Part shown: in pieces, positions 7,806-56,366 of the stretch
Layout of the letters: each line of letters opens with the position of its first letter
Position numbering within the stretch: position 1 is the first letter of the stretch
Assembly (NCBI RefSeq): GCF_024502345.1
Contig: NZ_JALDNN010000001.1
DNA: 64,000 bases
DNA from: Escherichia coli
GTDB lineage: Bacteria > Pseudomonadota > Gammaproteobacteria > Enterobacterales > Enterobacteriaceae
Strand: one strand, 5' to 3'
The notes under the pieces: generated by a model
The model's input: the letters and a program-made list of their open reading frames with translations, nothing else
The model's database searches: none
Told to the model about the DNA's origin: nothing
Made by a program: the position numbers and the translations under genes

Positions 7806-7881
7806 TGGTGCCCGGACTCGGAATCGAACCAAGGACACGGGGATTTTCAATCCCCTGCTCTACCGACTGAGCTATCCGGGC
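7806..7881 (-). tRNA. pheV: tRNA-Phe (anticodon GAA)
   Basis: Reverse complement reads GCCCGGATAGCTCAGTCGGTAGAGCAGGGGATTGAAAATCCCCGTGTCCTTGGTTCGATTCCGAGTCCGGGCACCA, the canonical E. coli tRNA-Phe. Confidence 0.95.
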
Positions 7882-16114: not shown

Positions 16115-16440
16115 TGGCAAAGAACCGTAGCCGTCGTCTGCGTAAAAAAATGCACATCGACGAATTCCAGGAATTAGGATTTTCGGTGGCATGGCGATTC
16201 CCGGAAGGTACATCGGAAGAACAGATTGATAAAACCGTTGATGATTTTATTAACGAGGTTATCGAACCGAACAAACTGGCCTTTGACGGCAGCGGTTATC
16301 TGGCCTGGGAAGGTCTGATCTGCATGCAGGAAATCGGCAAATGCACCGAAGAACATCAGGCGATTGTGCGTAAGTGGCTGGAAGAGCGCAAACTGGATGA
16401 GGTACGCACCAGCGAACTTTTCGACGTTTGGTGGGACTAA
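16114..16440 (+). CDS. yggL: DUF469 protein (108 aa)
   Basis: Start [18 protein letters not shown] at internal Met of ORF 16084..16440. Confidence 0.8.
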   Translation: MAKNRSRRLRKKMHIDEFQELGFSVAWRFPEGTSEEQIDKTVDDFINEVIEPNKLAFDGSGYLAWEGLICMQEIGKCTEEHQAIVRKWLEERKLDEVRTSELFDVWWD

Positions 16441-16464
16441 GAAAGCATACGGGCGATGACAAAT

Positions 16465-16555
16465 GCAAAACTGCCTGATGCGCTACGCTTATCAGGCCTG
16501 GAAAGATGCACGATCGAGTAGGCGGGATAAGGCGTTTACGCCGCATCCGGCATGG
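16465..16555. repeat. REP (BIME-type) element
   Basis: tgcctgatgcgctacgcttatcaggcct and ggataaggcgtttacgccgcatccgg palindromic units; the same unit recurs at 55212. Confidence 0.8.
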
Positions 16556-16623
16556 AAAACGCGTACTTTGTTATCAATCTGGGGCCAGCAAATGCTGGCC
16601 TGATTTGTTCTTGAGGGAAGACT

Positions 16624-39308: not shown

Positions 39309-39505
<197 letters not shown>

Positions 39506-54068: not shown

Positions 54069-55148
54069 ATGTCTAAGATTTTTGATTTCGTAAAACCTGG
54101 CGTAATCACTGGTGATGACGTACAGAAAGTTTTCCAGGTAGCAAAAGAAAACAACTTCGCACTGCCAGCAGTAAACTGCGTCGGTACTGACTCCATTAAC
54201 GCCGTACTGGAAACCGCTGCTAAAGTTAAAGCGCCGGTTATCGTTCAGTTCTCCAACGGTGGTGCTTCCTTTATCGCTGGTAAAGGCGTGAAATCTGACG
54301 TTCCGCAGGGTGCTGCTATACTGGGCGCGATCTCTGGTGCGCATCACGTTCACCAGATGGCTGAACACTATGGTGTTCCGGTGATCCTGCATACCGACCA
54401 CTGCGCGAAGAAACTGCTGCCGTGGATCGACGGTCTGCTGGACGCGGGTGAAAAACACTTCGCAGCTACCGGTAAGCCGCTGTTCTCTTCTCACATGATC
54501 GACCTGTCTGAAGAATCTCTGCAAGAGAACATCGAAATCTGCTCTAAATACCTGGAGCGTATGTCCAAAATCGGCATGACTCTGGAAATCGAACTGGGTT
54601 GCACCGGTGGTGAAGAAGACGGCGTGGACAACAGCCACATGGACGCTTCTGCACTGTACACCCAGCCGGAAGACGTTGATTACGCATACACCGAGCTGAG
54701 CAAAATCAGCCCGCGTTTCACCATCGCTGCGTCCTTCGGTAACGTACACGGTGTTTACAAGCCGGGTAACGTGGTTCTGACTCCGACCATCCTGCGTGAT
54801 TCTCAGGAATATGTTTCTAAGAAACACAACCTGCCGCACAACAGCCTGAACTTCGTATTCCACGGTGGTTCCGGTTCTACTGCTCAGGAAATCAAAGACT
54901 CCGTAAGCTACGGCGTAGTGAAAATGAACATCGATACCGATACCCAATGGGCAACCTGGGAAGGCGTTCTGAACTACTACAAAGCGAACGAAGCTTATCT
55001 GCAGGGTCAGCTGGGTAACCCGAAAGGCGAAGATCAGCCGAACAAGAAATACTACGATCCGCGCGTATGGCTGCGTGCCGGTCAGACTTCGATGATCGCT
55101 CGTCTGGAAAAAGCATTCCAGGAACTGAACGCGATCGACGTTCTGTAA
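54069..55148 (+). CDS. fbaA: fructose-bisphosphate aldolase class II (359 aa)
   Basis: Start MSKIFDFVKPGVITGDDVQKVF. Confidence 0.95.
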   Translation: MSKIFDFVKPGVITGDDVQKVFQVAKENNFALPAVNCVGTDSINAVLETAAKVKAPVIVQFSNGGASFIAGKGVKSDVPQGAAILGAISGAHHVHQMAEHYGVPVILHTDHCAKKLLPWIDGLLDAGEKHFAATGKPLFSSHMIDLSEESLQENIEICSKYLERMSKIGMTLEIELGCTGGEEDGVDNSHMDASALYTQPEDVDYAYTELSKISPRFTIAASFGNVHGVYKPGNVVLTPTILRDSQEYVSKKHNLPHNSLNFVFHGGSGSTAQEIKDSVSYGVVKMNIDTDTQWATWEGVLNYYKANEAYLQGQLGNPKGEDQPNKKYYDPRVWLRAGQTSMIARLEKAFQELNAIDVL

Positions 55149-55174
55149 GATATTCCTTTCTGCTTATCTCAAGG

Positions 55175-55196
55175 CCCGCTCTGCGGGTCTTTTTTT
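55175..55196 (+). terminator. intrinsic terminator of fbaA
   Basis: cccgc tct gcggg followed by TTTTTTT. Confidence 0.7.
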
Positions 55197-55211
55197 CGCC
55201 AAAAGCAAAAT

Positions 55212-55311
55212 TGCCTGATGCGCTACGCTTATCAGGCCTACACGTATCCTGCAATATATTGAATTTGCAGGTTTTTGTAGGCCGGATAAGGCGTTCACGC
55301 CGCATCCGGCA
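55212..55311. repeat. REP/BIME element
   Basis: tgcctgatgcgctacgcttatcaggcct and ggccggataaggcgttcacgccgcatccggca units. Confidence 0.8.
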
Positions 55312-55505
55312 TGACAAAGCGCACATTGATATCTGTCTGAGCCCCGCTCTGCGGGGATTTTTTCGCCAAAAGCAAGGTGATTCAGATGAGAAATCTGTGA
55401 TCTATTTGGCAAAATTATGCTTTATTGTTTACCCTTGTCAGACTGCCCGTCATAAGGCGGCGGAGTGTATTTCTCCATTTTGAGTCAGTTGAAAAGGAAT
55501 ATTGA

Positions 55506-56366
<861 letters not shown>

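Follow-up and report, generated by a model that had tools for sequence, protein, structure and literature searches.

Few repeats are as abundant in enterobacterial genomes as REP/BIME sequences, and the fbaA-mscS intergenic spacer of Escherichia coli raises the question of how one of them came to lie between two copies of the same terminator. The spacer occupies positions 55149-55505 of the 64,000-nucleotide E. coli stretch analyzed (the window) and was 100% identical to several complete genomes. The reading favored here, at a probability of roughly 70%, is that this long allele arose by insertion of a BIME-1 element at the fbaA terminator with duplication of the target hairpin, and that such a duplication, with its length set by the structure of the target, is a general BIME-1 signature. 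The BIME-1 at fbaA and the hairpin copies recurring on both sides of other elements are a concrete clue to BIME-1 insertion.

The spacer is bounded upstream by the fbaA gene for class II fructose-bisphosphate aldolase (plus strand, 54069-55148; an open reading frame with its TAA stop at 55146-55148, for which RefSeq has a 1080-nt fbaA CDS in the homologous position) and downstream by mscS for the small-conductance mechanosensitive channel (plus strand, 55506-56366; an open reading frame so annotated by RefSeq at homologous places). Copy 1 of the direct repeat is the native fbaA intrinsic terminator T1 (37 nt, plus strand, 55172-55208; AGGCCCGCTCTGCGGGTCTTTTTTTCGCCAAAAGCAA), comprising a stem-loop at 55171-55191 (nine pairs, loop TCT), a U-run at 55190-55196, and CGCCAAAAGCAA at 55197-55208. 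Copy 2 is the predicted second terminator T2 (36 nt, plus strand, 55340-55375; AGCCCCGCTCTGCGGGGATTTTTTCGCCAAAAGCAA) with a stem-loop at 55342-55356 (six G-C pairs, loop TCT), a U-run at 55358-55363, and again CGCCAAAAGCAA at 55364-55375, after which the native sequence resumes exactly as in the empty alleles. The conserved mscS upstream region that follows (plus strand, 55376-55505) was the same in long and short alleles when alleles and Escherichia species were aligned. The two copies lie 167-168 nt apart from start to start, confirming a sequence-only reading of this DNA that had described, with accurate coordinates, a recurrence of the fbaA terminator about 165 bp downstream. The 3'-most 18 nt were identical between copies, the T-run had seven T in copy 1 versus six in copy 2, and the hairpin portions differed at three positions, of which a G-to-C and a T-to-G change turn a G·T pair into C-G and a C-to-A change disrupts the neighboring G-C pair. 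The 18-nt identity was the longest exact direct repeat in 54900-55700 (maximum of 13 in 1000 shuffles) and the terminator repeat is real, beyond chance. A terminator scan scored both copies as terminator-like and their fold energies were -14.1 kcal/mol (z -4.2) for T1 and -11.6 kcal/mol for T2. Each copy has a G+C-rich stem-loop directly before a U-run (U7 in T1 and U6 after one A in T2), predicting two tandem terminators.

Between the copies lies a BIME-1 (RIP/RIB-type) body of 131 nt (plus strand, 55209-55339), delimited by the block missing from short alleles and by full-length alignment with paralogues, which, when folded as a single strand, formed a continuous long hairpin (-51.6 kcal/mol, z -5.2). 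The REP pair that the sequence-only reading had placed here was borne out by two inverted palindromic units (PUs). Palindromic unit 1 is a z1-type REP (plus strand, 55212-55241; TGCCTGATGCGCTACGCTTATCAGGCCTAC) identified from inverted repeat I1 and the paralogue alignment, and palindromic unit 2 is a y-type REP (plus strand, 55277-55311; GTAGGCCGGATAAGGCGTTCACGCCGCATCCGGCA) identified from inverted repeat I2 and from the minus strand, which matches the y-PU consensus exactly. They are separated by the L linker (plus strand, 55242-55276), with an IHF-consensus-like core at 55252-55265 (GCAATATATTGAAT) that was kept in all paralogues, and are followed by the right-end motif (plus strand, 55312-55339), here TGACAAAGCGCACATTGATATCTGTCTG compared to TGAACAAAGCGCACTTTGTCAACAATCTG in the consensus from alignment of paralogues and 30 loci. 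The element thus has the y and z1 units in inverted orientation and the long conserved linker with a putative IHF site of a BIME-1, and the window holds one unit at this place and not a BIME-2-like tandem array. IHF binding is known for the BIME-1 family (PMC3333891). Further likenesses to BIME-1/RIP/RIB elements are its single copy at the 3' end of a transcription unit and the presence/absence polymorphism of the whole element among strains. It is unlike them in its 36-37 bp duplication of the host terminator on both sides and in its left end, where the left motif of ~22 nt (GAGACTGATGACAAACGCAAAA) is absent and its place is taken by the native T-run and CGCCAAAAGCAA; the right-end motif is present yet diverged. 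The BIME-1/RIP/RIB elements of E. coli were reportedly described by Gilson, Bachellier, and Hofnung, by Oppenheim and Rudd, and by Boccard and Prentki.

The Rfam family ES036 (CssrF sRNA) matched 55234-55276 on the minus strand with 47.3 bits against a gathering score of 37.6 and was the only family to pass, as naRNA4, GcvB, and the remaining matches fell below their gathering scores and were set aside. The matched stretch is the conserved L-linker core, seen in the window and in paralogues, so ES036 may represent a segment of a repeated element rather than a unique sRNA gene.

Alleles with and without the element segregate in E. coli. Among the 5,425 complete genomes with a match, 3,724 carried the long form and ~1,700 (about 31%) matched in two pieces over a span of 254 bp, compared to 421 bp. 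By alignment, the short allele lacks exactly 167 bp of the long one and has one copy-1-type terminator and no BIME, as in S88, ChlosBP-23-1, and ETEC6334; among B2 strains, S88 and ZH193 were short. An MscS scan of species-representative genomes returned 80 loci, including ~45 non-Escherichia Enterobacteriaceae species with fbaA upstream, a spacer of 158-218 bp, and a single terminator homologous to copy 1, so that one hairpin is the ancestral state of the fbaA-mscS site. These 80 loci included none from E. albertii, E. fergusonii, or Salmonella, and the age of the insertion within Escherichia is therefore only roughly bounded. Two Escherichia lineages labelled E. coli (L005 and L006) had the short form with only the copy-1-type hairpin. 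In E. whittamii (L008, ~1140-1500) one BIME unit was present with its left junction as in E. coli, and the second hairpin was degenerate (GCCGCCAGGATAGAGGGGA) with its T-run and CGCCAAAAGCAA intact. Escherichia sp. E1V33 (L007, 997-1370) carried three terminator copies and two BIME units in a tandem array with a period of 169, 2.2 copies, and 96% matches, the repeating unit being element plus terminator; this array appears to show that the flanking repeats drive change in unit number. All three long forms (E. coli, E. whittamii, and E1V33) share the unusual left junction …CGCCAAAAG(C/A)AA|AATTGCC, pointing to a single ancient insertion followed by changes in unit number by way of the flanking repeats. 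Together, the short and long alleles, the single terminators of the outgroups, and the zero, one, or two units found in Escherichia make an occupied/empty pair with a target-derived duplication. The REP-less alleles that the sequence-only reading had proposed seeking across Enterobacteriaceae were accordingly found, both in the ~1,700 E. coli genomes and in the ~45 other species.

Which of the two E. coli alleles came first is a separate matter, and it is nearly an even call, leaning slightly against, that the long allele was ancestral to E. coli and the short alleles are precise excisions between the two repeats. The insertion, with the same odd left junction, was found in E. coli, E. whittamii, and E1V33 and has diverged by roughly 15% between species (an estimate from alignments); being common to three Escherichia species at such divergence it predates E. 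coli, and the short E. coli alleles are thus possibly secondary deletions rather than never-occupied sites. A crossover in the 18-nt identity would moreover yield the short allele as observed, with the copy-1 hairpin and seven T, and unit number does change, as the two units of E1V33 attest. The short alleles are, however, structurally the same as those of the outgroup genera and of L005 and L006, and could equally be retained or introgressed ancestral alleles. This polarity concerns the E. coli polymorphism only and is compatible with an insertion origin of the duplication.

The arrangement at fbaA-mscS was repeated in two further occupied/empty pairs. In the empty metE-ysgA spacer of E. coli a single hairpin (ACCGGGTGGTAATACCACCCGGT) precedes CTTTTCTC, and the filled form in a related metagenome sequence reads hairpin, GAGATTGCTGAC…CAATCTGT, and hairpin again, then TTTTCTC. 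In yajD-tsx, FDAARGOS_1371 is empty with one hairpin and EC42405 is filled with both copies. E. coli K-12 (L216, 100-380, compared with L217 and L215) has kept the BIME-1 and right hairpin of yajD-tsx and lost the left hairpin and left motif, and is by its sequence a probable example of footprint decay. At three independent loci (fbaA-mscS, metE-ysgA, and yajD-tsx) the unoccupied site has one copy of the sequence that flanks the element, and at each of them the filled site carries abutting direct repeats. A different situation was observed downstream of metE in E. coli O121 RM8352 (L214, 220-631), where a BIME-1-like element with a truncated first PU is joined at its right end by another hairpin (GATGGCTTCCATCACCGGAAGCCATT), and the position of ysgA is taken by small, unrelated ORFs. 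The fruA-psuK spacer exists as two deeply diverged haplotypes, a B2 type (L086), in which the fruA terminator hairpin stands on both sides of a BIME-1, and a K-12 type (L090, 1040-1260, and L092) with two related hairpins 113 nt apart. Interpretation of the K-12-type spacer as a decayed BIME-1 was not significant, as 77 of 500 shuffles scored equally well.

The ends of the element were defined from its family. In genomes without the fbaA insert, the best match to a 133-nt query (window 55209-55341) was a paralogue at 90-100% coverage. Five paralogues, and later 30 loci, gave a consensus of ~152 nt composed of left motif (TGAGACTGATGACAAACGCAAAAyTGCC), PU, L linker, PU, and right motif (CATGAACAAAGCGCACTTTGTCAACAATCTGA). 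The family ends, TTGAGACTGATGACAAA and on the opposite strand TTCAGATTGTTGACAAA, are imperfect inverted repeats identical at 14 of 17 positions. A single donor locus for the 30-nt tail of the fbaA insert was rejected, because this tail is the family-wide right-end motif, and hence no donor can be named. The fruA-psuK paralogue of ATCC 25922 likewise has its own terminator hairpin on both sides, with 171 nt between the two copies.

The family was sampled by scanning metagenome contigs (mixed enterobacteria) for the L-linker pattern, which gave 98 usable copies in 36 flank clusters, from which 30 independent single BIME-1 loci were kept. For each locus the left flank was aligned with its own right flank, using flanks from different loci as the control. 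True pairs scored a mean of 19.2 versus 13.8 for mismatched-locus pairs (Mann-Whitney p=1.8e-5), and with control scores of 18 at the 95th percentile, 21 at the 99th, and 26 at maximum, 10 of the 30 true pairs lay above the 95th percentile and seven above the 99th. The left copy ended 21-25 nt before PU1, directly before the left motif, and the right copy started 28-31 nt after PU2, directly after the right motif; with such constant offsets both copies sit exactly at the conserved element ends. The flanking repeats were locus-specific, hairpin-forming, and 20-27 nt in length. Both hairpin copies were present at ~11-13 of the 30 loci, with repeats at weaker loci called by eye; the other loci had one hairpin or none, most of them keeping a hairpin on one side only, which is interpreted as decay. 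The duplication has no fixed length, the individual values being 20, 20, 20, 22-23, 25, 27, and 36-37 nt and following the hairpin at each locus. That the flanking copies are an inverted fold-back extension of the BIME palindrome was rejected by the orientation of the loops and by the fbaA T-run, as the copies are direct, and direct flank scores exceeded inverted scores at most loci.

The two copies differ in T-run and stability. A T-run followed only the right copy at the sampled loci, and the right copies were usually more stable (e.g. -20.5 versus -7.3 and -23.9 versus -11.9 kcal/mol), suggesting that the left copy, which lacks a U-run, decays. At fbaA, where a T-run follows both copies, the left copy is the more stable, and selection may therefore retain whichever hairpin copy acts as terminator, as these predicted folds suggest. 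The proposal of the sequence-only reading, a footprint of REP/BIME insertion with flanking duplication, hence gains support from the BIME-less alleles, from metE-ysgA and yajD-tsx, and from the enrichment at the 30 loci.

The fbaA junction is atypical, as its repeat reaches 19 nt beyond the usual extent and takes in the T-run and 12 more bases. The native fbaA sequence (CGCCAAAAGCAAAA / GCCAAAAGCAAAA) resembles the missing left motif of the element (GACAAACGCAAAA) at 11 of 13 positions, and the left junction may for this reason have been shaped by microhomology-mediated joining or by later gene conversion. Two courses fit: the left joint may have formed through microhomology of native GCCAAAAGCAAAA with element GACAAACGCAAAA, or an ordinary insertion may have been followed by gene conversion from copy 2 to copy 1 across the same similarity, which would also account for the identical 3' 18 nt despite three differences in the hairpin.

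The same similarities could have served template switching or microhomology copying, in which a nascent strand that has passed the terminator jumps to a BIME-1 elsewhere via GCCAAAAGCAAAA/GACAAACGCAAAA and returns upstream of the terminator (..ATCTGAG versus native ..ATCTCAAG), so that the terminator is copied twice. Hairpins are obstacles to replication, both fbaA junctions fall in short similarities between target and element, and the left motif of the element is missing, all of which would agree with such an event. These similarities are nevertheless short (11/13, and 7-8 nt with an indel), the empty metE-ysgA and yajD-tsx sites show no comparable microhomology, and elsewhere the repeats abut complete conserved ends (left, -21 to -25 nt; right, +28 to +31 nt), a constancy that fits end-specific processing and not random switching. 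Template switching is consequently an unlikely source of the long allele. An origin of the duplication unrelated to insertion, by a 37-bp tandem terminator duplication that came first or by a separate origin of the second terminator, is strongly disfavored: tandem duplications by slippage are common and no allele with a BIME and a single terminator was available to exclude this order at fbaA, but no BIME-less allele with two adjacent terminators occurred among the sampled E. coli alleles and ~50 outgroup species, the element would have had to land exactly on the repeat junction, and the arrangement recurs at ~11 independent loci, each with its own hairpin, and in the two further empty/filled pairs.

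Insertion with duplication of the target hairpin has to explain precise element ends, a direct duplication, its variable length of 20-37 bp, and its coincidence with a stem-loop. In the proposed course, the BIME-1, as a REPIN-like repeat of two inverted REPs with an IHF-site linker and imperfect terminal inverted repeats, would insert at the fbaA terminator, leaving the target hairpin, T-run, and 12 bases in one copy on each side. The duplicated segment would be the whole locus-specific hairpin, typically 20-27 bp and 36-37 bp at fbaA. As a palindrome presents the same hairpin on both strands, a nick in each strand, always to the same side of the hairpin which that strand forms in a cruciform or as single-stranded DNA, could give a staggered break across the hairpin; the stagger would then equal the hairpin length. 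Joining of the element to both ends and filling of the gaps would yield hairpin-BIME-hairpin. Thereafter, the direct repeats would permit unequal recombination, which would account for the zero, one, and two units in Escherichia, and the hairpin copy without a U-run would usually decay, fbaA having retained a U-run in both copies.

From these features we infer that the two strands are nicked in a staggered fashion, one at each foot of the hairpin. Hairpin-directed integration, in which a target stem-loop, typically that of an intrinsic terminator, is cut at one foot on one strand and at the other foot on the other strand and the structure sets the length of the duplication, is offered tentatively, with the odds somewhat against it. 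No enzyme is known to make a structure-sized stagger, which counts against the favored insertion reading. TnpA_REP (RAYT) is a candidate at the level of a guess; its substrates are REP hairpins in single-stranded form, and it cuts ssDNA at C^T (PMC3333891). Read toward the flank, each end of BIME-1 has …TC^T(G/C)A, placing a C^T symmetrically near each end, which is suggestive in view of this cleavage preference. A simple rule, in which TnpA_REP cuts the target at a C^T beside the hairpin, was rejected for the empty metE-ysgA and yajD-tsx sites, which have no following TG(A); for want of these bases, the target cannot simply have been cut and joined at a C^T. Also counting against the favored reading, the IS200/IS605-type Y1 transposases related to TnpA_REP make no target duplication (PMC3333891, PMC2817692), and a duplication was found here and at ~11 of the 30 loci.

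Among known systems, REPINs and their RAYTs (Y1 HUH enzymes related to IS200/IS605) are alike in the non-autonomous palindromic REP doublet, thought to be mobilized via recognition of single-stranded hairpins. The two-unit array of E1V33 resembles the tandem REPIN units including flanking sequence in Pseudomonas fluorescens (PMC3116915). A target duplication is absent from transposition of the RAYT type, whereas BIME-1 here has a long duplication that tracks the hairpin. Bacterial MITEs mobilized by DDE enzymes (e.g. Correia) share the short non-coding form, imperfect terminal inverted repeats (14/17 in BIME-1), flanking direct repeats of the target, and empty sites with one copy, although their duplications are short and fixed (2-10 bp) compared to the 20-37 bp of BIME-1, which vary between sites and correspond in each case to a hairpin. 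Class C group II introns and IS1397 (in REP loops) likewise pick targets at gene 3' ends by DNA secondary structure; they insert beside or inside the hairpin and are not known to copy the whole hairpin to both sides. Flanking hairpin duplication was not described in Ton-Hoang 2012, Nunvar 2010, Bertels & Rainey 2011, Delihas 2011, or Corneloup 2021, nor in the progressiveMauve paper. Within this comparison, to which Gilson 1991, Bachellier 1997, Boccard & Prentki 1993, and Oppenheim 1993 were external, no description of a family-wide duplication of the target hairpin was found.

The footprint has four parts, namely duplication of the whole hairpin, precise element ends, empty sites with one hairpin, and later recombinational change in unit number, and its reproducibility would lead to testable predictions of the target, the positions of strand cutting, and the appearance of a de novo insertion. 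Hairpin-directed integration, if true, would provide the first genomic footprint of REP/BIME spread, would imply either that TnpA_REP, a domesticated Y1 transposase, has a new activity or that a further partner enzyme takes part, and would explain both the location of these elements at the 3' ends of transcription units and the precise excision of whole BIME-1s by recombination between hairpin copies. At typical sites the first hairpin loses the U-run and the second keeps it, so that the BIME-1 should be transcribed into the 3' UTR, and for convergent pairs such as metE-ysgA the same placement would be expected for either direction of transcription. The fbaA duplication took in the U-run as well, which leaves the element with a complete predicted terminator on each side; most transcripts should stop at T1, short of the element, and T2, positioned upstream of the unchanged mscS promoter region, should catch read-through. 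In this predicted terminator arrangement roughly two thirds of E. coli strains would differ from the other third.

Further elements were observed in the window. The yggL-yggN spacer (16440-16600) holds a second BIME-1-like element that has the two end motifs and the two PUs but a short linker lacking the IHF core; a hairpin (GGGGCCAGCAAATGCTGGCC) adjoins its right end only. As a fourth empty/filled pair it was uninformative, being fixed in E. coli (5,348 of 5,425 genomes covered at least 80% of the query). A tRNA gene unrelated to BIME-1 was identified at 7809-7881 on the minus strand (Rfam RF00005, 68.3 bits). Two clusters, at 27200-27335 and 39310-39500, each consist of three to four PUs that alternate in orientation and are either BIME-2-like or atypical BIMEs.
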